Shown here: piece by piece, positions 1,030 to 12,908 of the stretch | Layout: each line of letters opens with the position of its first letter | Position numbering within the stretch: the stretch's first letter is position 1 | From: an uncultured bacterium | GTDB lineage: Bacteria; Planctomycetota; Phycisphaerae; Sedimentisphaerales; Anaerobacaceae | Assembly: GCA_965369645.1 (NCBI GenBank) | Contig: CBDURK010000001.1 | Coordinates: 1 to 24,180 of the forward strand | DNA: 24,180 bases | Direction of reading: 5' to 3' | Translations under genes and position numbers: made by a program | The notes under the pieces: model-generated | What the model was told of the DNA's origin: nothing | Database searches by the model: none | What the model saw: only the letters and a program-made list of their open reading frames with translations

Positions 1030-2817
1030 TTATTTTGTTTGTTCAGATTGCTTCTTAAGTTTTTCTGCTTCGGCTTCTAATTTTTTGAAAAGCTCCGGTT
1101 TTTCGATTCTTATCCGGCCAAGCAGAGTTTGTCTTAAGTGAGGTGGATATAGCTGGTCATTCAGGAAATCAGTCAGTGCAAAGTATCTAAACTGTGGAAG
1201 TGAAGGCAGGTTGATCCTAAATTCAGGATCATCATGTTTTACCTTGTAATAGTTCCATACTTGTTCTGCCATTTTTTCACTATTGAATGAACCGTCATCA
1301 TCACGAATTGCATATAAGTAATAACTGTCCCTTAACATCATAGTTATCATTTCTGTTGCGTCATTTATTCCTATAGCATCGAGTTCCTCTTTGAAGCGTT
1401 CCTTCACATATTCATCGACTATAGGATTTTTAAATTCGTCCAGGGGGTACAGTTGTCTTAGTTGGGTATAAATCTTTTGTGCCTGGCGTTTGTGCCCGGC
1501 ATAATAGAAGGAATTTATGGCATTTTTGAGCATATTGCGGTGACCGTTCTGAAGGGATACAGTACGCTGCTCGTCTCCGTCATCTTTGTATTTTTCGAGA
1601 GTTGTAAGCACTGATGTATTGTACGACTCGAACATCCTCAAATCAGGCCGTAAAAACACTTCTTTAAGTATCCGCTCCTGAGGTTGCTCTGGAGAATCCT
1701 CTGCGGATGGCGGAAGTTGTAACTCGTAGATGAATATTCTGCCGTTACGGAAGAGATCCTGCAAGCTATGAAATACGATTCGATCCGCGTTTGTTTCAGA
1801 TGCATCGATTTCCCTGTCCTGCTCTTGTGCAAGTATTTTAAGGCCCTTGACGGCCCAGTAGATTGCGTGACAATCGGGGTGCCGCCAATCCAGAGGTAAA
1901 TGTGTATTCGGGTCGTTCCAATCAACAGGGCCGTAGGTTCTGTTTAACTCTCTCATTAAAACCGGATCAAGTTTCCATACTTTACGTAACTGCCAGGCCT
2001 TGGCAAAGATATCGAACTTTTCGAGGGCTTCTGTGCCTCTGAAATTGTCTATTGTCTGACCTGCGGCGGGATCAAACCTTTGGGAGTTTTGCCTTAATGA
2101 CAGATAATTGCTCACGAACTCATTATCGTCTGAAAATGCTTCATCGGCTGCTTTTAACGCTGTGATTAACGAGGTCATATTCGGGTCGTTGGAAATTTCC
2201 TGCCAGGAGAGAGGTGCTTCGGCAAGTGCATTGAAATACTGATTATCCGCAGGGCCAAGAAGCGGCTCCATTGACAAAGCCAATTGCAATTTATAGTATT
2301 TATGTGCATCGTCTGATACGCCGCCAATTTTGTGCTGGAATATCCTGCCAAGCTCACGGAAAAGCGTAATATTTTTGAGCTTATATTTGTCGATAGCCTG
2401 GTCACGGATCAGTTCATAACCGTTTCTGACCCATTGCCATCTTTGGTCCGGCTGTGTCTCTGGTATGGCGACCGAGATGTTATAAGCCATATTCCATGCG
2501 TGGAACTCCCAGACCGATGCGAATCGAGGCTGCAGGATGGTTATCCATTCGGCAAGCTGTCTGGCGTCGAAGAACTGGCCTTCCTCTTTTAGTTTATCCG
2601 CCCGCATCCATAAGATATCCACGACCAGGCCGCGAAAGGCTCCGGTTGCAATGGTTGCGAATGCCAGTGAAGGAGGAAGATTTTCAGGCGTGTCGATTAT
2701 CAAATTCATTTCCTGACGCTGGCGATTTATGGAGTCGAGCTGTATGCCGGCACCGATAAATAAACCAACCGCAAGAACTATACAAACAAAACAGATTATT
2801 TTGTCTCGTAAACGCAT
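1030..2817 (-). CDS. Membrane-anchored, largely helical hypothetical protein (PVC-type family usually next to ABC-2 transporters)
   Basis: 595-aa ORF with one N-terminal hydrophobic helix (IICFVCIVLAVGLFIGAGIQL). It carries the Trp/aromatic-rich block GAFRGLVVDILWMRA...ITILQPRFASVWEFHAWNMAYNISV and begins 18 bp after the permease stop. Family assignment is from recall. Confidence 0.75.
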   Translation of the reverse strand: MRLRDKIICFVCIVLAVGLFIGAGIQLDSINRQRQEMNLIIDTPENLPPSLAFATIATGAFRGLVVDILWMRADKLKEEGQFFDARQLAEWITILQPRFASVWEFHAWNMAYNISVAIPETQPDQRWQWVRNGYELIRDQAIDKYKLKNITLFRELGRIFQHKIGGVSDDAHKYYKLQLALSMEPLLGPADNQYFNALAEAPLSWQEISNDPNMTSLITALKAADEAFSDDNEFVSNYLSLRQNSQRFDPAAGQTIDNFRGTEALEKFDIFAKAWQLRKVWKLDPVLMRELNRTYGPVDWNDPNTHLPLDWRHPDCHAIYWAVKGLKILAQEQDREIDASETNADRIVFHSLQDLFRNGRIFIYELQLPPSAEDSPEQPQERILKEVFLRPDLRMFESYNTSVLTTLEKYKDDGDEQRTVSLQNGHRNMLKNAINSFYYAGHKRQAQKIYTQLRQLYPLDEFKNPIVDEYVKERFKEELDAIGINDATEMITMMLRDSYYLYAIRDDDGSFNSEKMAEQVWNYYKVKHDDPEFRINLPSLPQFRYFALTDFLNDQLYPPHLRQTLLGRIRIEKPELFKKLEAEAEKLKKQSEQTK

Positions 2818-2835: not shown

Positions 2836-4191
2836 CTACACAATAATTTTTGCAATTTCCCGATAGCTGAAAATAATTAAGGCAAGGACCAGCAATAAAA
2901 GTGATTTGATACAAACCATGACAATGGCGCACCTGACTAATACCGACCAGCTTAATAATAGGCCGGGAACCATGAACCTGGTAGGATTGTATTTGTCAAA
3001 TTGCGGTAAAAGCCTGACCATCCACTGGATAGTATAAGTGTAAATCACACTAACATTTTCACTTAGAAAGCCGAATGATTCCATAACAAAGCCGCTGAAG
3101 CACGACGTTGAAAAAAGTACAAGGCAGAGCAGTATAGCCACAGGGAAAGACAAAAAAGTCGAGGCAAATGTGCCCAGACATGCCAGGAAAATCAAGCGAA
3201 ACAGTATTAGAAAAGTAACTCTTATGAAATTGCTTGTGAAAGTATCCGCCTTATAAAGCACTTCTATGCCGTCAGGCGGAAAGAATATGACTGTGCTGTT
3301 TAGCGGATAGTTCTGGAATGCTACAGCCAGATGGCCATGTTCAGGTATGACATTGGCAGGGATTACTATTTCGTGAAAATCCCGAACTGAGTTTTTATGG
3401 ACACGGTCGTAAATGGGAGTTTCGCTTTCAGTGCCATACTTGATATATTGATAGTCGCCTGCAACCCATCTGCCAAGGACCTGCATATCGGGCGGATTAA
3501 CCGCGACGTCGTATTTGAATCTTATAAAGAAATTTTGGGCAAGAGACTTAACGTTATCGAATTCCCATGTCAGTACCTGGCCGACATCGGCAGCTCGGTT
3601 AGCCAGTTGTTTTTGCATGGTGATCCGGGTAATGATTTCCTCATACGAGACATCTTCAGGTAACTCGTTACTTCTTTCAAGTTTCTTGTAAGTATCCTCG
3701 ACCTCCTGGGAAACATCGATGGCTGGGACAGTCAGAGATGCCCTTGCAGTAAAAAACTCGTAGTTGGCCTGCATCAGTTCAAACTCAGATGCCTTGGTGA
3801 ATTTCGGCATGTAAATAGTAATTGTGTATATTATCGCTGCAAACAAACTGAGCAAAACCACATCTAATAATATTACTCCGAGCAGTTTGCCCAGAAGAAA
3901 CTCAAATCGGCGAATTGGTTTTGTGATAACTGTATATATCTGTCTTTGCTCAATGTCGCTGGTTACTGTGTAAATGGAGATTATTATCGTGAGTAAACTG
4001 AGTAAAATGCTGGTCAGTGAAAGGCCGTAGCTTACGAAGGTTTGCAGTCTGCCTTTTAAGGTTCCATCGCCTGTGGAAGAAAAACCCAAAACAGAAAGAA
4101 GGACAAGCAGCAGGATTAGGAAAACAGCGGCAACCTTCATCCGCAAAGCCTGCTTTATAGTATTTGTGGCGACAGCCCAGATACTACGCAT
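2836..4191 (-). CDS. ABC-2 type transporter permease with large extracytoplasmic domain
   Basis: Starts MRSIWAVATNTIKQALR and contains the ABC-2 motif SDIEQRQIYTVITKPIRRFEFLLGKLLG. Three N-terminal TMs, a ~190-aa soluble insert, then C-terminal TMs. The start overlaps the ATPase stop by 8 nt. Confidence 0.88.
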   Translation of the reverse strand: MRSIWAVATNTIKQALRMKVAAVFLILLLVLLSVLGFSSTGDGTLKGRLQTFVSYGLSLTSILLSLLTIIISIYTVTSDIEQRQIYTVITKPIRRFEFLLGKLLGVILLDVVLLSLFAAIIYTITIYMPKFTKASEFELMQANYEFFTARASLTVPAIDVSQEVEDTYKKLERSNELPEDVSYEEIITRITMQKQLANRAADVGQVLTWEFDNVKSLAQNFFIRFKYDVAVNPPDMQVLGRWVAGDYQYIKYGTESETPIYDRVHKNSVRDFHEIVIPANVIPEHGHLAVAFQNYPLNSTVIFFPPDGIEVLYKADTFTSNFIRVTFLILFRLIFLACLGTFASTFLSFPVAILLCLVLFSTSCFSGFVMESFGFLSENVSVIYTYTIQWMVRLLPQFDKYNPTRFMVPGLLLSWSVLVRCAIVMVCIKSLLLLVLALIIFSYREIAKIIV

Positions 4192-5422
4192 CGCCTACCT
4201 CTCCTGCCTGTGAGTTATCAGTTGGCTCTTTGTCCTGGCCCTGGGTGGATTTCTTGTCTGTGAGCTGGTCCAAAATGCTTTTGTTGACTTGCCTGGGCTC
4301 AGGGGCCTGGGATTTGACCGGTTGTGTTGTAATTTCTTCGCTTCTGACAGAGGCTTCGGGCTCGGTCGAGTCGGTCAGTTTACTTAGCAGTTGTTCAGCG
4401 GGTTCAGGTTCGGCACTTTCGACAGGAATCACCTTTTCTGTTGCCGGGGGTTCCGCCGGGGCGCCCTGTGATACCGGTTCAGAGACAAGTTTATCGAGTA
4501 TATCTTCCGTAACGGTTTGCTTTGTAAGAAAATCGCCGATTTTTGTAGTGCTGACGGCGCCACTTGTAGTCTGTGACTGTTGTTGAGCGGCCGCCACTGT
4601 TTTGATAAAAAATGTTTCGAGTTTATCCATCGGAGAGGTTACCACACACTCGGAATTTTCTTCATGAATTAACTGCTTTATTTTCTCAATGGTGGCATCG
4701 CTTATGGCATCGGCGGTAATTTGCCTTTTATTTGTCTGCTGTAAGAGGTCACTGACCTGACCCTGGGTCTGGATTTTACCGCCGTAAAGAATTGCAATTC
4801 TGTCGCATACATCTTCGACGTCTGCAAGCAGATGGCTGCAAAGTAAAATTGTCTTGCCGCGTTCGGCAAGTTTCAGCATTAAATCCTTTATCTGTCTTGT
4901 TCCAATGGGGTCAAGCCCGGTTGTCGGTTCATCCAGTATAAGTAAGTCGGGGTCGTTTATCAGTGCTTGTGCAAGGCCGATTCGGCGGGCCATACCTTTC
5001 GAAAACGTTCCGACCGGCCTGTTGGCGACAGCCATTAATCCGACCATATCGAGCAGAGCTTCGATACGCATTTTTCGCACTTTGGCCGGCAGGCCGAATA
5101 ATCTGCCGTAAAAATCCAGAGTTTCGCGGGCATTCAGATACTTGTATAGATAAGATTCTTCGGGTAAAAAACCGATTCTGGAGTTGATTTGAGAGTCTGT
5201 TCCATCACCGCCGAGAATTAATGCCTTTCCCTTCGTGGGATGAAGCAGTCCTAAGAGCATTTTTATAGTTGTAGTTTTCCCCGAGCCGTTGGGGCCTAAA
5301 AGACCGAAAACTTCGTTATAACGTACCTGTAAATCCAGGTCATCCACAGCATAAACCCTGGCCCGTCCCCACCAGTCGGAAAAAATCTTGGTCAGGGAGA
5401 AGGTTTCAACAGCATATTCCAT
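4184..5422 (-). CDS. ABC transporter ATP-binding protein with long low-complexity C-terminal tail
   Basis: Walker A GPNGSGKT, signature FSKGM, Walker B LLILDEPT and H-loop LCSH. The start was moved from the track's 5521 (which overlaps the P1B gene) to ATG 5422 (MEYAVET...); ATG 5434 is an alternative. Confidence 0.92.
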   Translation of the reverse strand: MEYAVETFSLTKIFSDWWGRARVYAVDDLDLQVRYNEVFGLLGPNGSGKTTTIKMLLGLLHPTKGKALILGGDGTDSQINSRIGFLPEESYLYKYLNARETLDFYGRLFGLPAKVRKMRIEALLDMVGLMAVANRPVGTFSKGMARRIGLAQALINDPDLLILDEPTTGLDPIGTRQIKDLMLKLAERGKTILLCSHLLADVEDVCDRIAILYGGKIQTQGQVSDLLQQTNKRQITADAISDATIEKIKQLIHEENSECVVTSPMDKLETFFIKTVAAAQQQSQTTSGAVSTTKIGDFLTKQTVTEDILDKLVSEPVSQGAPAEPPATEKVIPVESAEPEPAEQLLSKLTDSTEPEASVRSEEITTQPVKSQAPEPRQVNKSILDQLTDKKSTQGQDKEPTDNSQAGEVGDA

Positions 5423-5459
5423 ATTTTTTATCATGTTGCTTATTACCGGGTTTTTGCCA

Positions 5460-7385
5460 TTATATTTCGTGGTCAAGGTCTTCGCCGAAGCGGACAAGTC
5501 GAGCACTGTTAAAGACGACAATCAGTGAGCCGGCAAAATGCAAAGCCGCTGCATAGACAGCCGGCAGCCATCCGGCCGCTCCTGCGGTGTCACCAAGAAT
5601 GACAAATAATATTCCAAAACCGAGATTCTGAGTAATAACTTTTCTTGTTTTTCGAGAAAGCTGGACAAGGAAAGGCAGCCGCCTCAAATCGTCGCTCATC
5701 AGGGCAATTGAAGCGGAATTAATAGCTACGTCGCTGCCTGCCGCACCCATAGCAATACCCAGGTCACCTGCCGCTAATGCAGGTGCATCGTTTATGCCGT
5801 CTCCGACAACGACAACCGTATGGCCGTCTTTTTTAATCTGCTCGACAATCGCTAATTTGTCATGAGGCAAACAATGTGCCTTGAAATCGGTACAACTCAG
5901 TTCGGCGGCAACACGGCTGGCAACTTCATTCCGGTCACCGGTAAGCATAGTTATTCTTTTTATGCCCACATCGATCAGTTCCTTAACGGCTTGCCTGGCT
6001 TCGGGTCTGGTTTTGTCCTGCAAGCCAATCCAGCCGATGCACCTCGAATCTTTTGCTACATAAAGGGTACTAAAACCCTGCTCCTCGTGCAGGGCCGGGT
6101 CGGAAACATTACTTACATCAATGTTGTTTTCCTTGAGGAATGTATCTCTTCCGACAAAAATTGTGGATGAATCGATAACTGCAGTTACGCCTTTACCCGG
6201 CGTTTCTTTGAAGTTATTCGTTTCAGGTAAAGATAGGTTTGCTTCCTTTGCCACTTCCCTGAGTGCCTTTGCGGCCGGGTGTTTACTCATCTGCTCGGCA
6301 GAAGCTGCAGCCGCTAATAATTCAGCCGGCTCGATACCCTCAGAAGGCGTGAGTTTTGTTACATATAAACGGCCGGTAGTTAACGTTCCTGTTTTGTCGA
6401 ACACCATCGCCGTCATCTTGCCGGCAATCTCGAGGTCGGCGACATTCTTTATCAGAATACCAAGACGGGCAGAAGCGGAAATAGCCGCCACCATCGCCGT
6501 CGGTGTAGCCAGAATCAACGCGCAGGGACACGAGACAACAAGTATCGTAATAGCCCTGTCTATATCACGGGTGAAGAACAGAACTATACCGGCAATCATC
6601 AGGATTGTTGGTGTGTACCACTTAACATTTTGGTCAATTATCCGCATAATCGGTATCTTCGTTTGTTCAGCCTGCATAATAAGCGACTGAACCTTACCGA
6701 GAGTTGTGTCTTTACCGGCTTTGGTTACTGTAATATCAAGTACGCCTGTAAGGTTGTTCGTACCGGCAAAAACCTGCATCCCCGGGACCTTATCGACGGG
6801 CAGAGATTCACCTGTTATTGTTGCCTCGTTAACGGAGCTAAGGCCTTTTATAACTTCACCATCGGCCGGTATATTGTCACCGGGGCGGGTGCGGATGCAA
6901 TCGCCGGTTTTTAAGCTGCTTACTTTAACTTCTCTTTCAGAACCATCACTGTCGAGGATGTTTGCTTTCGTAGGTGTGAGCTTTATCAGAGATTCGATTG
7001 AGGCGCGTGCCCCGAGGGCGGTACGTGTTTCAATTAGCTCGCTGAGGAGCATAAAGAACGCGACGATACCTGCCGTGACGTAGTCCTGCGTTGCAAAGGC
7101 TGCTATTATGGCCAGTGCAACCAGTTCATCCATATGTGCATGCCCCTGAACAAGACTTTTTATTGCATGAAAGACGATGGGAGCACCGAGCAGTATAGCA
7201 CCGGCCATTGCAAGAAACTCAGCGTTGAAGCTGCTGCTGCCGTAAATGAGCTTCGCGATGCCGCTGTTTATCAGCAGCATTCCGCCGGCTAACGTTCCTA
7301 ACAGTGCAATACTAACGCGAATCTGCTTGCCGTGAGTGTGCTCGGCGGCGATGTCATCCTGAAAATGTAAATGTTGGTGAGCCAT
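5460..7385 (-). CDS. Heavy-metal-translocating P1B-type ATPase (CPC type, no N-terminal HMA domain, short His-rich N-terminus)
   Basis: TGES actuator motif, SCPC (C286/C288), DKTGT (D330), HP motif (SKHP) and GDGINDAP. N-terminus is MAHQHLHFQDDIAAEHTHG. Confidence 0.95.
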   Translation of the reverse strand: MAHQHLHFQDDIAAEHTHGKQIRVSIALLGTLAGGMLLINSGIAKLIYGSSSFNAEFLAMAGAILLGAPIVFHAIKSLVQGHAHMDELVALAIIAAFATQDYVTAGIVAFFMLLSELIETRTALGARASIESLIKLTPTKANILDSDGSEREVKVSSLKTGDCIRTRPGDNIPADGEVIKGLSSVNEATITGESLPVDKVPGMQVFAGTNNLTGVLDITVTKAGKDTTLGKVQSLIMQAEQTKIPIMRIIDQNVKWYTPTILMIAGIVLFFTRDIDRAITILVVSCPCALILATPTAMVAAISASARLGILIKNVADLEIAGKMTAMVFDKTGTLTTGRLYVTKLTPSEGIEPAELLAAAASAEQMSKHPAAKALREVAKEANLSLPETNNFKETPGKGVTAVIDSSTIFVGRDTFLKENNIDVSNVSDPALHEEQGFSTLYVAKDSRCIGWIGLQDKTRPEARQAVKELIDVGIKRITMLTGDRNEVASRVAAELSCTDFKAHCLPHDKLAIVEQIKKDGHTVVVVGDGINDAPALAAGDLGIAMGAAGSDVAINSASIALMSDDLRRLPFLVQLSRKTRKVITQNLGFGILFVILGDTAGAAGWLPAVYAAALHFAGSLIVVFNSARLVRFGEDLDHEI

Positions 7386-7436
7386 AATTTCGTATCTTTT
7401 TCGTTTTTTTCTTGAATATTAAGATTCAGCTAATTC

Positions 7437-8738
7437 TTAATCCTCTTGTGTCGTTTGCTGTTTGTTGGTTTTCGACTTTAACGTGGGGTCTCTGTTTATC
7501 AGAATTCGCCATTCCGCACCCTTAGGAATGATAAATTTCTCATCAACATTGTTGAAAATGCGTTCTATTGCGTCCTGATAGAGCTTCTGGATAACAAGCT
7601 CCGGATGTTTGCGATATTCGGGAAGCAATTCCTTGAGATATTCGGCATTGGCTCTGGCATTTGCTACAACTTTAGATTGGTAGGACCTTGCCTGGGAGAT
7701 TTTCTCTTGAGCTGTACCTGCCAATTGAGACCACAATAACTCCTTTTCTTCTTCACTGACGGTATCATCCTTTAGGGCCGCAAATAATTTTTCTGCCACC
7801 GGCCCGGCAGCCTCATTCAGAGTGCTTTCAGCATAACCCCGGGCGGCATTTATAGATGTTTGACGATCCTGACTGGCAGTTGCTAATGCCTGAAACTCTG
7901 CATCGACCTGCCGTGGCCAGGTCTTTTCCGTAAGCTGTACCTGTACAACTTTTAAGCCGCTTTCTATCGTGTTGAGTTTTTCCTGTACCAATTTTTTGAT
8001 ATGTTCCGTTAACCGGGCGACTTGCTGGTACATAATATCGTCGATAGTATAGCTCACTGTTGCGGTTACTATCGCATCTTCAAAGATATTTTGCAAAAGC
8101 AGTGTTATACTTTCTATTACAACATCAAGGTAAATATCACCCGGCTTTACATCTTCGACGTAAATATTCTTAAAGAACCGTACGGGATCATCAATCTGAT
8201 AGGTTAGCCGCCACTTGCAATGGACGATATTGTAGTCACTACCACTCGATCCTGATATCGTCTCATCCGGTTTTTCACTTCGCGTAATACAATAACCGTC
8301 TTTTACGGGGTCCAGTTCGGGCAGGAATCTGGTCTTTTGGATAGAGGGATCCATAAGCATTTCCTCTTTACTTTGGTAATACCAAAAAGACCTTATGGCC
8401 AAATCAATTTTCTTCTCTACAGGGATTTTTACCATTCTTTCCACCGGATATGGGATTATCCAGTACGGCCAGGTCCTGGGCTTGAGAACTCTGCCCTCGC
8501 CAACTCCGCGAATCTTTCCAAATCTTAAAACAAGAGCCTGTTCGTCGGAACCAACCGTTTTAAAACCGGAGGCCAGAAACGCAAGGATAAGCACCGCCAT
8601 TATAACTTTCAGAATGACGAAGCTGATTCCCAATGCTTCTGATAGTGACTTGCCGGCAGCATCAAGTTCTACGGGTTTGGATTTATCTGGTGTCTGTGGT
8701 TGTAAATCCTTATCACTTTTTTTATCTTCTTCAGCCAT
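7437..8738 (-). CDS. hflK: HflK-like SPFH/Band 7 membrane protein
   Basis: Single TM followed by VGSDEQALVLRFG, TYQIDDP and KVVQVQL...WPRQVDAEF. The HflK-type coiled coil ends LLPEYRKHPELVIQKLYQDAIERIF. Confidence 0.85.
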   Translation of the reverse strand: MAEEDKKSDKDLQPQTPDKSKPVELDAAGKSLSEALGISFVILKVIMAVLILAFLASGFKTVGSDEQALVLRFGKIRGVGEGRVLKPRTWPYWIIPYPVERMVKIPVEKKIDLAIRSFWYYQSKEEMLMDPSIQKTRFLPELDPVKDGYCITRSEKPDETISGSSGSDYNIVHCKWRLTYQIDDPVRFFKNIYVEDVKPGDIYLDVVIESITLLLQNIFEDAIVTATVSYTIDDIMYQQVARLTEHIKKLVQEKLNTIESGLKVVQVQLTEKTWPRQVDAEFQALATASQDRQTSINAARGYAESTLNEAAGPVAEKLFAALKDDTVSEEEKELLWSQLAGTAQEKISQARSYQSKVVANARANAEYLKELLPEYRKHPELVIQKLYQDAIERIFNNVDEKFIIPKGAEWRILINRDPTLKSKTNKQQTTQED

Positions 8739-8788
8739 AATCTTGCGTAACTTTTATTTCATTTCGAACAATAAAATTTACATTATTC

Positions 8789-9682
8789 TTACTGTTTAGG
8801 TTTCAGGGACGGGGCTTCCTTTAAAAGTTTGAAAGGTTCCGAATCGGCCGGAATAACGATAGTTGAACGTTCCTTTAACATCTTTTCCAGGCTGTCGATA
8901 TTACGTAGAAACATTGCGAGTTCAGGATCTTCTTCCAGCATTTTATAATGTTTCGCGGCTTCAGCATCACCCTGCCCTCGTATAGCCAGGGCTCTTGCCT
9001 CTGCGGTGGTACGCAGAACATCCTTTTTATAATTAGCCTCGCCTTTTATCCTGGTTGCCTGGCCCTGGCCCTCGGAAATGGTAGCTTTGGTCCGGAGGTT
9101 TCTGGCAGCTTTCATCCGTTCGAACACTTTCACTGTGACAACTTTATTGACTTTAAGCTGTTTTATACCGAGAGTCTTGATTTCAATGCCGTATTCGTTG
9201 CTCAGGGTTTGTTCAAGGTCTGCGAGCATTTCGGCTTCAATTTCCTTGAATTTTATTTTAGCCGGGTCGCTGTTCACAAATTCGCCGAAGGAATGCTGGC
9301 CGATTACCCTGTTTTGAGTGTCGGTAATCTGGCTGTATAGTTTGACTTCGGCCTCCTTGACAGTGCTAACGGAATTCAGGAATTTCAAAGGCTCGGCAAT
9401 TCTCCAGACTACATAAGTATTTACTATAATCGGCACAGCGCCTTTTGTATTAGTTTCTCCGAGGTCGGCCTCAAAAACGTGCATTCTGGAGTCAAACTTG
9501 TGTACACGCTCTATCGGGGCCGGCAACTTGAAACATAGTTTTGGTTCGGTGATTGTGCGTACAGGTTTACCGAATCTCGTTACTAACGCTGATTCGGTCT
9601 CTCTGACCTGAAAAGCAATCAGATACAAACCCATAATTAAAATAACTAATGCGATAAAAATTGTAATGACTATATTTTTCAT
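8789..9682 (-). CDS. hflC: HflC-like SPFH/Band 7 membrane protein
   Basis: N-terminal TM, then FQVRETESALVTRFGKP, VVWRIAEPLKF, YGIEI...IKQL, VFERMKAAR, RGQGDAEAAKHY and DPELAMFLRNIDSLE, all characteristic of HflC. The start overlaps the upstream stop (TAATG at 9682). Confidence 0.9.
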   Translation of the reverse strand: MKNIVITIFIALVILIMGLYLIAFQVRETESALVTRFGKPVRTITEPKLCFKLPAPIERVHKFDSRMHVFEADLGETNTKGAVPIIVNTYVVWRIAEPLKFLNSVSTVKEAEVKLYSQITDTQNRVIGQHSFGEFVNSDPAKIKFKEIEAEMLADLEQTLSNEYGIEIKTLGIKQLKVNKVVTVKVFERMKAARNLRTKATISEGQGQATRIKGEANYKKDVLRTTAEARALAIRGQGDAEAAKHYKMLEEDPELAMFLRNIDSLEKMLKERSTIVIPADSEPFKLLKEAPSLKPKQ

Positions 9683-11739
9683 TATTGGCTAATCTCCTCA
9701 AAACCACCGATGTCATATATACTTGGTGTGAGTTTTTCCTGGATATCGATTATAAAAATCTGCTTATCATTCGGATCTGCGGCTACGACATATTTTCGTA
9801 TATTTTTCAGAGATTCTTCGAGCACATTTAACCTAAGCTGCTTCTTGTAAATCTCTTTTGCGGCCCTGTATGCCTTGAGCTGGCTGTTAAAGCGTTCGCC
9901 GGCTGCTTTTGCAAGCGTAGCTTTTTCAAATGCATAGCTTTGTGATTCTCTCAGAGTCTTAAAGATATCACCTTTGGATTCTTCAAGTTCTGTATCCAAC
10001 TCAATACCAAGCTTTTTGAAATCCTCCGGCCTGTTTGTTTTTTCGGCCTCCTGATATTTTACTGCGAGACTGTAAAGCTCGTCAGCGGATGCCACTGAAC
10101 CTGCAAGTGCACTCAAACTTTCGTTTTTATTTGCCTGAGCTTCGAGTATAAGTGCCTGTTTCGTCTGAACCGCGCCGACAACCTCCTGGTAATCTGCCGC
10201 TACTTCAGTCGGTGGGTGGATACCCTGAAGACCCAGAAAGACGATTTCGATACCTAAATCAGCGTCGTCGCAGGCCTTCTGGATTTCACGCGTCAAAGTG
10301 TTCTTGGCTCGAGCCCTGCCTGCTCCAAGCAGGCTCTGCTCAAGGTCGGCTTCATCATCAACCTCGATTGTTGCACTGGTTGCGAATTTTGTAAGCTCAC
10401 GATAGCAGATAGCTTCGAGTCGTTTTTCCGGTTCTTTGTGCTTATAAATGAAAGAATACAAATCCTTTACTCTGTATTGTACCGGAACAGCGGCAATAAC
10501 AATTCCCACGGGCACGGCCGAATCGTCTGAGGATAGACCTGTTTGTTTACTTGCCACAAGCAACTGGTATTCTTCCTCATAATGCTGCTGGCCCCACAAT
10601 AACGGGCCATACCCAACTTTGTCGGTGTTTTGCTCTTTGGCGACAAAGCCGATACTAAGCTCCATTACTTTCTTCGTCGGGTACTTATAAGCGATATCTA
10701 TCGGCCATGGCCATTTTCTATGCAGTCCCGGGCCGACATGCCTGACTTTATCGGTTTTGCTTACAGGATTGCCGAATCGCTCTATTATTGCTTCCTCATT
10801 GGGTGCTACTACGATAATGCAACTCAACAAATATAGTGTAATGGCGGCAAATAAAACCAAAGGCGCTATTGCTTTTTCGAGCAGTTTATAAAACCAGGTT
10901 TGAGAAACCTTGAAGCCAAACTGATAGTCAATGGCACCTGCGGCACTATGGAATATTCCGCCCGGTTCATTTATAATCCCCAATAGCCTGCTGTCAAAAG
11001 CGCTTCTACTGTATTGTCCTTTTAGTCTCGGACGGTAGATATCGAAGATGAGATTCAAAGCGGTTTCGGCACCTATGAAAACAAGCAGAATCGGGACAAT
11101 CCAGTTAATTACGTTTAGCACGATGAAAATCTGGAATTGTGATAATGCCAACCCTATTGCTGTAGCAAAACACAAAACAGCTATGCTTAAAAGAGTGCTT
11201 CCCCCTGCTCTTAATGGTTTCCACTGCGGCTGGGCCGACATACCGGTGGCATATCGAGAGATTAAAAAGCTCATAAACGCGACTGCCGTCATTCCAATTG
11301 CACAAAGCAAAGTTTGTTGCGGCTTGCCTTCAAGGCCCTTCATAACGGTCTTTAATAAATAAAGTCCGAGACCTATTTCATAAGCGGCGATTAGTGTTGA
11401 GAATATGGGAATGAACCATCTTTCGAGTATTTGCAGATGCCGCTGAGCAGTGGCGAATAAACCGGCACGTTCGCCGCTGGCTTGAAAGATTGCCGAGGTC
11501 TTCTCGTCCTTGACCAGTTGGCCCATATCGAGTTTTTCCTGCTCTGCCAGGGAGCGTTGATGGAATTGAACAGATAAAACCAGCCAAATCAAAGCCGAAG
11601 AGAGAATCAACCAACTGATTGCAGAGAGGGCAAAGAAGCCGCTCCATCGGCCTAAGAAGAAGGCAATTCCGAAGAATACTACACTCAAGACTAAAGATAC
11701 AATCGCTATGTTTTCAGGGCGTTTTGATGATACTGTCAT
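9682..11739 (-). CDS. Long HflK-like SPFH protein fused to an N-terminal ~7-TM domain
   Basis: Residues ~1-308 contain about 7 hydrophobic helices. The C-terminal half has VVAPNEEAIIERFG, GLHRKWPWPID, VQYRVKD, LGIEIVFLGLQGIHPP and the HflK-type tail AYRAAKEIYKKQLRLNVLEE. Confidence 0.85.
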   Translation of the reverse strand: MTVSSKRPENIAIVSLVLSVVFFGIAFFLGRWSGFFALSAISWLILSSALIWLVLSVQFHQRSLAEQEKLDMGQLVKDEKTSAIFQASGERAGLFATAQRHLQILERWFIPIFSTLIAAYEIGLGLYLLKTVMKGLEGKPQQTLLCAIGMTAVAFMSFLISRYATGMSAQPQWKPLRAGGSTLLSIAVLCFATAIGLALSQFQIFIVLNVINWIVPILLVFIGAETALNLIFDIYRPRLKGQYSRSAFDSRLLGIINEPGGIFHSAAGAIDYQFGFKVSQTWFYKLLEKAIAPLVLFAAITLYLLSCIIVVAPNEEAIIERFGNPVSKTDKVRHVGPGLHRKWPWPIDIAYKYPTKKVMELSIGFVAKEQNTDKVGYGPLLWGQQHYEEEYQLLVASKQTGLSSDDSAVPVGIVIAAVPVQYRVKDLYSFIYKHKEPEKRLEAICYRELTKFATSATIEVDDEADLEQSLLGAGRARAKNTLTREIQKACDDADLGIEIVFLGLQGIHPPTEVAADYQEVVGAVQTKQALILEAQANKNESLSALAGSVASADELYSLAVKYQEAEKTNRPEDFKKLGIELDTELEESKGDIFKTLRESQSYAFEKATLAKAAGERFNSQLKAYRAAKEIYKKQLRLNVLEESLKNIRKYVVAADPNDKQIFIIDIQEKLTPSIYDIGGFEEISQ

Positions 11740-11825: not shown

Positions 11826-11854
11826 TTGCATAATATAACAATAATCGTTATTCT
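11826..11854 (+). promoter_or_regulatory. Putative sigma70-type promoter for the divergent permease
   Basis: TTGCAT-N17-TATTCT. An overlapping alternative is TTTACA(11811)-N17-TATAAC. Motif match only. Confidence 0.4.
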
Positions 11855-11945
11855 GGCATAGAGGTAAATGAAAAAAAATTATGCTCTTAAATAAAACCAC
11901 TACACCTTGGTACTCAGCACAGGCGGTGCGGATTGGCAGTGACAG

Positions 11946-12908
11946 ATGAATAAATTATTTACTATAGCAAAAAATACTTTCATAGAAACCCTGAGACAGC
12001 CTGTATATGCCATTATTATTGTTGCCGCACTTTTCCTGCTCTTTATCAGCCCGTCTTTGACAATGTACACAATGAGCGACGACAACAAGCTTCTGCGCGA
12101 GATAGGGTTATCTACGCTTTTTTTAACCAGCTTGTTCATTTCAATATTTTCCGCATCCGGTGCAGTGGCCAAGGAAATGGAAAATAAAACTATAATGACT
12201 GTCCTGACCAAACCGGTCCAACGTCCGATATTCATTGTTGCGAAATTTTTCGGTGTGGCTTCTGCCGTGGTTCTGGCGCACTATATCTGCACTATCGCCC
12301 TGCTGATGGTAATTAGGCATGGTGTGCTCGAAACGGTAAATGACCCGCACGACTGGACGGTTATCGCTACAGCAGGGGTTGTCCTTGTCGCAGTATTTTT
12401 GCTAAGTGCTTTTTTTAATTATGCTTATGAGTGGAAGTTCTCGTCAACAGCAATCGTTTTAACCGGCATATTCGCTACCTTAGGTATTGTATTTTTGATT
12501 TTTATTGACATTCATTGGCAGTTTAATCCTAAGGATAATGGTATAAACGCCGTGGATATTTACGGCTCGATATTACTGCTTTTGGCTGCAATAATAATGG
12601 TGGCTCTGGCCGTGGCACTTTCCTCCAGGTTTAATATTGTAGTAACGCTCTCGTGCTGTATTGGGATTTTTTTGCTGGGTCTTGTAAGCGATTATGCCTT
12701 CGGTAGATTTGCCGATACTCAATTGTGGGCCAAAATAGGCAGATATCTGGTGCCGAACTTGCAGATTTTCTGGATTAGCGACGCAATTTATGAGGGCAGC
12801 CAGGTACCTGTAAAATATATCGTGATAACTGCCTCTTATGCCTTGTGCTACACAACAGCCATACTTGCATTGGCTATCGCCCTGTTCCAACGCAGACAAA
12901 TAGGTTAA
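11946..12908 (+). CDS. ABC-2 type transporter permease (orphan, divergent)
   Basis: Starts MNKLFTIAKNTFIETLRQP and contains the ABC-2 motif KEMENKTIMTVLTKPVQRPIFIVAKFFG. About 8 hydrophobic segments; no adjacent ATPase. Confidence 0.88.
   Translation: MNKLFTIAKNTFIETLRQPVYAIIIVAALFLLFISPSLTMYTMSDDNKLLREIGLSTLFLTSLFISIFSASGAVAKEMENKTIMTVLTKPVQRPIFIVAKFFGVASAVVLAHYICTIALLMVIRHGVLETVNDPHDWTVIATAGVVLVAVFLLSAFFNYAYEWKFSSTAIVLTGIFATLGIVFLIFIDIHWQFNPKDNGINAVDIYGSILLLLAAIIMVALAVALSSRFNIVVTLSCCIGIFLLGLVSDYAFGRFADTQLWAKIGRYLVPNLQIFWISDAIYEGSQVPVKYIVITASYALCYTTAILALAIALFQRRQIG

Follow-up and report, generated by a model that had tools for sequence, protein, structure and literature searches.

Why should genes for three membrane proteins of the HflK/HflC type run directly into the gene for a metal pump? 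The question is raised by a stretch of 24,180 nucleotides (nt) of DNA from an uncultured Sedimentisphaerales bacterium of the Planctomycetota (positions 1 to 24,180 of contig CBDURK010000001.1, assembly GCA_965369645.1), which we call the window. On its minus strand three SPFH genes, here named S1, S2 and S3, precede the gene for a P1B-type ATPase and an ABC-2 exporter module. The structures of the HflK/C, stomatin, prohibitin and flotillin cages are well resolved, and the clients and purpose of these cages are debated; for the SPFH proteins of this cassette, genomics points to a candidate client, the metal pump. We lean, slightly rather than firmly, towards a specific assembly of SPFH proteins and transporter that organises or confines the handling of a divalent transition metal. 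That this assembly should be a closed cage enclosing the pump is a narrower idea, which we regard as doubtful.

The first-pass annotation of the window had proposed a new, FtsH-independent SPFH system dedicated to a metal pump. What it described, a co-oriented SPFH trio and P1B gene running on into an ABC module, is borne out by the coordinates, the Band_7 matches and a TAATG junction, and it was right that the window holds no ftsH; the ftsH of the source genome lies on another contig (C378). The arrangement is, however, already in print and so is not new, and the word dedicated proved too narrow, because the trio is linked equally often to the ABC-2 module. Added here are the orthology of the four genes across phyla, this equal linkage to ABC-2 genes, the ancestry of S1 in the CDF (cation diffusion facilitator) family, an intact CDF-HflK fusion and a set of candidate functional residues.

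Three SPFH lineages and a pump on one strand

Along the minus strand, from position 11739 down to 3, eight co-oriented open reading frames (ORFs) follow one another in the order S1, S2, S3, P1B ATPase, ABC nucleotide-binding protein (NBD), ABC-2 permease, p595 and a fragment of pcrA/uvrD. The genes that matter for the argument, with a divergent one upstream of S1, are these:

9682-11739, minus strand: S1, 685 amino acids (aa), seven transmembrane (TM) helices and an SPFH body, Band_7 match
8789-9682, minus strand: S2, 297 aa, HflC-like SPFH protein with one N-terminal TM helix, Band_7 match
7437-8738, minus strand: S3, 433 aa, HflK-like SPFH protein with one TM helix after a 37-aa cytoplasmic tail
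5460-7385, minus strand: P1B-type ATPase, 641 aa, E1-E2_ATPase and Hydrolase domains
4184-5434, minus strand: ABC ATP-binding protein (NBD), ABC_tran 107.7 bits, DrrA-type 232 bits, start taken as the ATG at 5434
2836-4191, minus strand: ABC-2 type permease, 451 aa, large extracytoplasmic insert, weak ABC2_membrane_2 and ABC2_membrane_4 matches
1030-2817, minus strand: p595, 595 aa, membrane-anchored and mostly helical, no family
11946-12908, plus strand: second ABC-2 permease, divergent, upstream of S1, 320 aa, ABC2_membrane_4, _5 and _2 matches

The S1 stop and the S2 start overlap in TAATG, and S2 appears from this to be translationally coupled to S1. The gaps that follow measure 50 nt (S2 to S3), 51 nt (S3 to P1B) and 25 nt (P1B to the first NBD ATG, at 5434), and no minus-strand terminator-like site lies inside the intergenic gaps. 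One strand, tight spacing and a P1B ATPase free of HMA are the marks of an SPFH-trio and P1B cassette of the hmtA-locus type, and all of them are found here. In the Pseudomonas aeruginosa hmtA locus (PA2439-PA2434), as annotated in the literature, an HflK-family gene, HflC and an HflK/C-family gene are likewise followed by a P-type ATPase; the window differs in adding the ABC-2 exporter module and in that no Zur or Zur box was found.

All three SPFH proteins fall below the NCBIfam equivalog cut-offs, which stand at 159.4 bits for HflK (TIGR01933) and 134.4 bits for HflC (TIGR01932). S1 and S3 reach 102.3 and 104.1 bits with TIGR01933, each with a Band_7 match of 56.7 bits, and S2 comes within 0.5 bits of the HflC cut-off (133.9 bits). 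The best PDB sequence match of S2 is E. coli HflC (4.3e-26), and S3 matches the coiled-coil region of HflK (1.7e-11). In a maximum-likelihood tree of 66 SPFH proteins, Proteobacteria included, all S1 form one clade (support 95/94) and all S3 another (85/89), each with its proteobacterial members inside; S2 groups with canonical HflC (100/100), the branching within that group being unresolved, and canonical HflK forms a separate clade (100/98) with S1 and S3 outside. To judge from this tree, S2 is of the HflC type, S1 and S3 are two HflK-like lineages, and the three are distinct paralog lineages, each with orthologs in both Planctomycetota and Proteobacteria. Like HflK/C, each is predicted to have its body on the periplasmic side.

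Like E. coli HflK and HflC in their complex with FtsH (7VHP, 7WI3, 9CZ1/2, 9PAW), the trio combines Band_7 with long coiled-coil helices and an N-terminal anchor, has periplasmic bodies and is encoded by adjacent K-type and C-type genes. It differs in comprising three paralogs rather than two, all under the equivalog cut-offs, in the seven TM helices and CDF-like domain of S1, and in its linkage to transporters instead of hfq-hflX or ftsH. The likeness suggests that the trio might be an alternative FtsH modulator, an HflK/C-type cage round FtsH that controls the turnover of the pump or of other membrane proteins under metal stress, and the facts that E. coli HflK and HflC are the best sequence and fold matches, that S2 all but reaches the HflC cut-off and that the source genome has ftsH speak for it. 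That genome nevertheless owns a canonical pair as well. Its assembly (530 contigs, 83% complete) contains five Band_7 genes, namely the trio and two on contig C317 which score as canonical HflK (258.8 bits) and HflC (267.3 bits), and the trio is therefore an extra set there. Mis-binning of contig C317 was considered and rejected, since its GC content and tetranucleotide make-up match the source genome.

Three further observations run counter to an FtsH role: the clades of S1 and S3 stand apart from canonical HflK, the plasmid cassettes described below travel with P1B and never with ftsH, and a mutant is available in another species. In P. aeruginosa PA14 three SPFH proteins, PaFlo5-7, are encoded in one predicted operon with a patchy distribution resembling that of horizontal gene transfer (PMC13086221, 2026). 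The pyocyanin, swimming and tobramycin phenotypes seen in hflKC and ftsH mutants do not appear in the paFlo5-7 triple deletion; that study includes no zinc-limitation assay and does not mention hmtA (PMC13086221). We thus consider a role round FtsH improbable for the trio as a whole. The separate hflKC of the source genome is in keeping with the FtsH independence claimed by the first-pass annotation, but gene content gives no ground for extending this claim to other genomes: canonical HflK over the TIGR01933 cut-off is found in only 7 of 41 Phycisphaerae genomes, and families f2 and f3 lack it.

A CDF-like domain in the first subunit

What sets S1 apart from HflK is the membrane domain ahead of its SPFH body. 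Seven TM helices are given by hydropathy and by the helices of an AlphaFold2 (AF2) model, and lysine and arginine residues number 17 inside versus 2 outside, with the N-terminus inside; the SPFH domain should therefore be periplasmic, as in HflK. The protein divides into three parts:

11035-11739, minus strand: residues 1-235, six-TM bundle, remote homolog of CDF (Cation_efflux) with an invariant Glu225 in TM6
10822-11034, minus strand: residues 236-306, cytoplasmic loop and TM7, recognised by conservation in homologs
9682-10821, minus strand: residues 307-685, predicted periplasmic HflK-like SPFH body and coiled-coil helices, with the S1-specific W382, H386 and H508

The AF2 model of the whole protein, with its SPFH body and helices 511-644 (mean predicted local distance difference test, pLDDT, 83), has E. 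coli HflK chains as its best Foldseek matches (E 4.7e-12), followed by stomatin, prohibitin, erlin, QmcA and flotillin, which are all cage-forming SPFH proteins.

The N-terminal domain matches no NCBIfam family, and no Pfam family even at E 5. Modelled alone (AF2, pLDDT 90.2, predicted template-modelling score 0.83), it retrieves from the PDB with Foldseek mainly YiiP, ZnT1/3/4/7 and SLC30A10 (E 0.02-0.3, template-modelling score 0.36-0.48). In VIA-align, generic ferritin-like bundles (Z <=13.7 over about 120 residues) rank below SLC30A10 (Z 15.8 over 179 residues, 3.1 A) and ZnT3 (Z 14.9), and among the AlphaFold database clusters the domain finds a "Cation efflux family protein" (E 4.5e-4, template-modelling score by hit 0.82). 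Because helical bundles may match by arrangement alone, the likeness was also tested on sequence. A profile of S1 TM1-6 aligned with 23 Phycisphaerae CDF membrane domains at hhalign 96.5% (E 7e-10, 199 columns), and a reversed-sequence decoy scored 3.9% against the same domains.

CDF transporters (PF01545; YiiP/FieF, ZnT, SLC30A10) are therefore both the profile-level homologs and the best structural match of S1 TM1-TM6. The site-A ligands of the family, HxxxD in TM2 and HxxxD in TM5, are absent at the aligned positions of S1, whereas real CDFs (L199, L195, L208, L217) have both motifs, and the cytoplasmic C-terminal domain of CDF proteins is replaced by the loop, the seventh TM helix and the SPFH body. 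On these profiles and models, S1 appears to begin with a degenerate CDF membrane domain, which the conserved cytoplasmic loop and TM7 connect to an HflK-like body, and its CDF-like domain is probably not a working CDF.

In S1, Y235, P237, S250, R251, Y272-F276 and W282 are invariant across 40 diverse homologs, together with the TM6 glutamate E225; the cytoplasmic loop reads YRPR..FDSRLLG..EP..YQFGF.VS.TWFY, and with TM4-TM7 it aligns with proteobacterial S1 at hhalign 86% (E 4.7e-6). Three periplasmic residues distinguish S1 from canonical HflK and are conserved in Planctomycete and proteobacterial S1 alike: W382 and H386, which belong to an extra loop, and H508, part of an HPP motif whose counterpart in HflK is R/N-PP. 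Among 64 S1 sequences surveyed, the 59 from genomes with the P1B clade of the cassette (clade P1B, defined below) keep H508 without exception (59/59) and H386 in 54 cases. Both histidines are replaced in the three S1 from f6 and f8, two families in which the nearest P1B lies apart from the trio and its CPC motif is lost or altered. E225, H386, H508 and the YQFGF loop are candidate residues for function.

In a related lineage the transporter domain is intact. A 510-aa ORF of genome G413 joins a Cation_efflux domain (95.8 bits, both HxxxD motifs intact), through a His-rich linker and one TM helix, to a Band_7 body that scores as canonical HflK, and tblastn finds a 524-aa ORF of the same layout in G424. 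In G413 (L218:54-10420, contig C108, checked with Pfam) one strand carries a peptidyl-prolyl isomerase (PPIase, 682 aa), the CDF-HflK fusion (510 aa), HflC (314 aa) and HflK (328 aa), and the run continues with a second PPIase (678 aa) and an HMA-bearing P1B ATPase (740 aa); ORFs of similar size stand in the same order in G424 (L219, contig C6). These fusion operons (L217-L219) resemble the window in that HflC-type and HflK-type genes follow the first subunit and a P1B gene lies in the same strand run. Unlike the window, they have an intact CDF, SPFH parts that score as canonical HflK (>214 bits), flanking PPIases and an ATPase with HMA.

The topology of the fused subunit equals that of S1 (six-TM transporter domain, cytoplasmic linker, TM helix, periplasmic HflK body), and a common origin of the two is therefore plausible. 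The fusion is evidence of the Rosetta-stone type that in such trios the first HflK-type subunit is physically joined to a metal transporter; taken with the CDF relic of S1, it makes a case that SPFH rings may pair physically with such transporters. The two PPIase genes that flank the G413 trio are PpiD/SurA-like, and their place beside a transporter-fused SPFH trio hints at a role in folding or metallation.

Linkage to the pump and to the ABC-2 module

How general is the association of trio and pump? The sample comprised 401 Planctomycetota genomes searched with the S1 N-terminal domain, which was found in 69 of them; 60 neighbourhoods were fetched and the window proteins mapped onto them. Close homologs all come from Planctomycetota metagenome-assembled genomes labelled Phycisphaerae or Sedimentisphaerales. 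Of the 60 neighbourhoods, 53 have all three SPFH genes, and in 29 of 35 well-covered loci, those whose flanks were long enough to judge, the trio is accompanied by an adjacent P1B gene whose product is 50-72% identical to that of the window (after S3 in 18 loci; upstream, by the divergent ABC-2 gene, in 11). P1B matches split cleanly into those of at least 49% and those of at most 45% identity, and this split defines clade P1B at the genome level. S1 and clade P1B occur together in 59 genomes, S1 alone in 10, P1B alone in 2 (poor assemblies) and neither in 330; because related genomes are not independent, these counts describe the association and do not test it. Both in genome content and in gene position, the trio goes with this P1B clade. 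In a tree of 37 P1B ATPases the cassette-linked pumps all fall into one clade (SH-like approximate likelihood ratio test, SH-aLRT, 99), away from ZntA-type, P1B-4-like and CopA pumps; the clade also contains unlinked pumps and a few solitary paralogs.

The association extends beyond the phylum. A tblastn search of plasmids with S1 found the four genes in the same order, with stop/start overlaps, in Burkholderia, Rhizobium, Klebsiella and Paraburkholderia. The Burkholderia ubonensis plasmid cassette is flanked by IS5, IS110 and IS66 insertion elements, a Rhizobium tumorigenes plasmid carries the same four genes, the Klebsiella aerogenes cassette adjoins Tn3 and a DUF4198 gene, and that of Paraburkholderia sprentiae adjoins a znuABC-like transporter, a GTP-binding protein, PCuAC and DUF2946. 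Homolog lists spread the S1 type across Burkholderiaceae and Enterobacterales, a scan of genome contigs with S1 gave Planctomycetota only, and two Planctomycetota genomes in which no Planctomycete-type S1 N-domain was detected (G070, G033) carry a cassette of the proteobacterial type. The linkage of trio and P1B is thus conserved, as the first-pass annotation had supposed, in Planctomycetota and on alpha-, beta- and gamma-proteobacterial plasmids.

Orthology between the window and the proteobacterial cassettes covers all four proteins, by the clades of the SPFH tree, the P1B clade (SH-aLRT 99) and the hhalign match of the S1 N-domain (86%). The conserved core is therefore the trio with this P1B clade, which are passed on and transferred together, and the window locus appears to represent, for Planctomycetota (Sedimentisphaerales), a cassette that is widespread and moves horizontally. 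The ABC-2 module is on none of the four plasmid cassettes, and in view of this and of the tree clades it is therefore best taken as an addition made in Planctomycetota.

Within that phylum the module can hardly be set aside. The permease and p595 adjoin the trio in 29 of the 35 well-covered loci, exactly as often as P1B does, and a divergent second ABC-2 permease adjoins S1 in 27; 25 loci have both P1B and ABC genes, four P1B only, four ABC only and two neither. The trio might then mainly serve the ABC-2 exporter (NBD, two ABC-2 permeases and p595), with P1B as a co-regulated neighbour and not a structural client. Apart from the four loci with ABC only, this is favoured by L190, where the start of NBD overlaps the stop of S3, by L192 and L193, where trio and ABC genes stand without P1B, and by families f6 and f8, which make up most of the ten S1-only genomes and keep the trio with ABC-2 genes, their nearest P1B being more than 300 kb off. 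The opposite is indicated by the cassettes outside Planctomycetota, which have P1B and no ABC-2 module, by the four loci with P1B only and by the loss of both H386 and H508 of S1 in f6 and f8, where P1B is unlinked. The N-terminal region of p595 (about 190 aa) is also frequent away from the trio: it occurs in 189 of the 401 genomes, in proteins of 270-800 aa, mostly outside the cluster and many in genomes without a trio. The ABC-2/p595 module is therefore independent, and we judge it unlikely that the exporter is the main client.

No Pfam or NCBIfam family was found for p595, and Pfam covers its N-terminal domain nowhere; its look-alikes in the Atlas are hypothetical proteins of Planctomycetota and Verrucomicrobiota. 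It is likely a family specific to the Planctomycetes-Verrucomicrobia-Chlamydiae (PVC) group and an accessory of the ABC-2 module. As a trio-specific partner it was rejected, its N-terminal domain being widespread without the trio. In the window, NBD has a tail of about 130 aa (4184-4597) after its nucleotide-binding domain, the ABC_tran match ending near residue 201 of the long ORF. Two apparent gene fusions were also dismissed. Frames of 998-1107 aa that would join S3 to P1B in the high-GC family f28 have N-terminal extensions free of Band_7 and of similarity to S3, and are out-of-frame artefacts; an S3-NBD frame (L192:12080-14809, 909 aa) is likely an indel or assembly error, as the near-identical L193:12080-14808 has two genes at a 1-nt offset.

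A third possibility is that the SPFH proteins are general organisers of membrane microdomains or of stress responses, merely co-expressed with transporters and without a specific partner. P. aeruginosa SPFH mutants show only subtle laboratory phenotypes (PMC13086221), and some pumps of the P1B clade are solitary and work with no SPFH gene beside them, both as this would lead one to expect. It accords poorly with a close gene linkage, in many cases through translational coupling, that recurs in different phyla, with a CDF transporter covalently fused to an HflK subunit, and with conserved, family-specific S1 residues that change along with the presence or absence of the pump. We give it little credence.

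Metal, regulation and a possible mechanism

The window P1B ATPase (TIGR01525, 554.6 bits; E1-E2_ATPase and Hydrolase) has the motifs DKTGT330, TGE191, GDGIND528, HP369 and, in TM4, CPC286, and the Pfam scan found no HMA domain in it. Its N-terminus is His-rich (MAHQHLH..EHTH, five His in 25 residues), a feature common among cassette pumps. Throughout the clade TM6 carries the motif L-H-(N/F)..S..V-I-F-N-S-A-R-L, in the window LHF..S..NSARL (L-H-F-A-G-S). HmtA, the pump of the Pseudomonas locus, is a P1B ATPase reported as a Zn/Cu importer. The nearest solved structures to the window protein are 7QBZ (P1B-4, 332 bits), A. fulgidus CopA (324 bits) and ZntA 4UMV (291 bits). It shares the core P-type motifs with sCoaT (7QBZ) and ZntA, and differs in having CPC instead of SPC, and L-H-F/N in TM6 instead of HEGxT or the ZntA Asp; lacking the TM5 Lys and TM6 Asp of P1B-2 as well as the SPC and HEGxT of P1B-4, it belongs to neither subgroup by these residues. 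The TM4 motif varies inside the clade, where CPS and CPL occur. In the unlinked P1B of families f6 and f8 (L153-L155: G189, G238, G382), which keep the trio and ABC-2 genes, VPA, TPG and CPS (the last in G238) replace CPC.

What the first-pass annotation said of P. aeruginosa, SPFH genes beside hmtA that are induced by zinc limitation, proved correct. PA2434-PA2439 are up 5.6- to 14.4-fold in a znuA mutant and have a weak Zur box; hmtA is PA2435, and PA2437, PA2438 and PA2439 are annotated as HflC/HflK-family (PMC4542158). The PA2434-PA2439 proteins are enriched under zinc depletion (PMC11761036). By analogy with this published gene order, the P1B clade would include the hmtA locus. In the literature searched, no mechanism has been proposed or tested for SPFH proteins with P1B. 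Proteobacterial S2 proteins (L147:10228-11265, L148:10284-11303, L151:9244-10308) have His-rich cytoplasmic N-terminal tails, such as HSHAHDHAHHGHGHDHHAHHG; S1, S2, S3 and P1B of the window are orthologous to those of the plasmid cassettes, yet window S2 differs from its counterpart in that it, like window S3, has no such tail. The His-rich tails, and the fact that the proteobacterial genes stand in a Zur-regulon context, suggest that the metal is of the zinc type.

The only candidate control element of the window lies upstream of S1, at a promoter-like site:

11832-11859, minus strand: ATGCCA and TATATT separated by 16 nt, from a consensus scan

A 7-1-7 imperfect palindrome, TAACGATtATTGTTA (11836-11850), overlaps the spacer and -10 of this site and is conserved in the closest relative (L067) only. 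It marks no regulon in the source genome, where the single near copy lies inside a coding sequence, and no FUR-family gene (PF01475) was found in the 83%-complete assembly. A Zur/Fur operator at this place was rejected on these three counts, and a leader riboswitch for want of an Rfam match. The evidence that the palindrome might be regulatory is weak. The source genome has two genes for ZnuA-like binding proteins (C178, C63).

Several results weigh against the specific SPFH-transporter assembly that we favour. The ABC-2 module is linked to the trio as often as P1B is, four loci have it alone and two have neither partner; the nearest P1B of f6 and f8 shares only 40-42% identity with that of the window and is unlinked; and solitary members of the P1B clade exist. 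In the sister families f2 and f3 (98-99% complete), which have the trio and no canonical HflK, the trio could serve FtsH. The loss of the two S1 histidines, although correlated with that of the linked pump, amounts to one or two evolutionary events, and the co-variation is suggestive only. Direct CDF homology was undetected for the proteobacterial S1 N-domain (hhalign 0.3%), which reaches CDF only transitively, through the Planctomycete profile (86%). Pseudomonas is not among the homologs of Burkholderia and Klebsiella S1, a word-based search giving Burkholderiaceae and Enterobacterales only, and the tie to PA2435-PA2439 is drawn from gene order in the literature and from other proteobacterial cassettes. 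Finally, no Zur/Fur gene, conserved operator or riboswitch that would indicate metal regulation was found in the source genome.

If the assembly exists, S1, S2 and S3 would co-assemble into a hetero-oligomeric ring or vault like that of HflK/C, at the periplasmic side of the inner membrane, and this ring would hold or enclose a metal transporter: in the related lineage a CDF that is intact and covalently joined to the first HflK subunit, and here, where the CDF part of S1 has lost its metal site, the separately encoded P1B as the working transporter. The likeliest contact would be the CDF relic of S1 together with the cytoplasmic loop. Such a ring would organise or confine the handling of a zinc-type divalent transition metal, and the ABC-2 exporter with its p595 accessory may be a second partner in Planctomycetota. 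A bolder version, which we put forward tentatively and think more apt to fail than to hold, is a vault whose first subunit arose from a CDF-HflK fusion and which boxes in a metal transporter, be it the fused CDF or P1B, as an FtsH-independent "caged metal transporter" principle. With such a vault the CDF relic and loop of S1 would be the docking site, the confined compartment would hand scarce metal to or from clients, and the ABC-2/p595 machine would act as a downstream handler in Planctomycetota.

Should the SPFH-transporter assembly prove real, it would account for a part of the Zur regulon that has lacked an explanation, and would offer a tractable bacterial model of how SPFH proteins regulate transporters. 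The cassette is mobile, being found in Planctomycetota and on plasmids of Enterobacterales and Burkholderiaceae, and by published gene order it would also be part of the zinc-starvation response of P. aeruginosa.

Elsewhere in the window, between 13618 and 17764, co-oriented genes for an acyl carrier protein (131 aa), a FabA-like dehydratase and two ketosynthases form a small cassette resembling a type II fatty acid or polyketide synthase (FAS/PKS).

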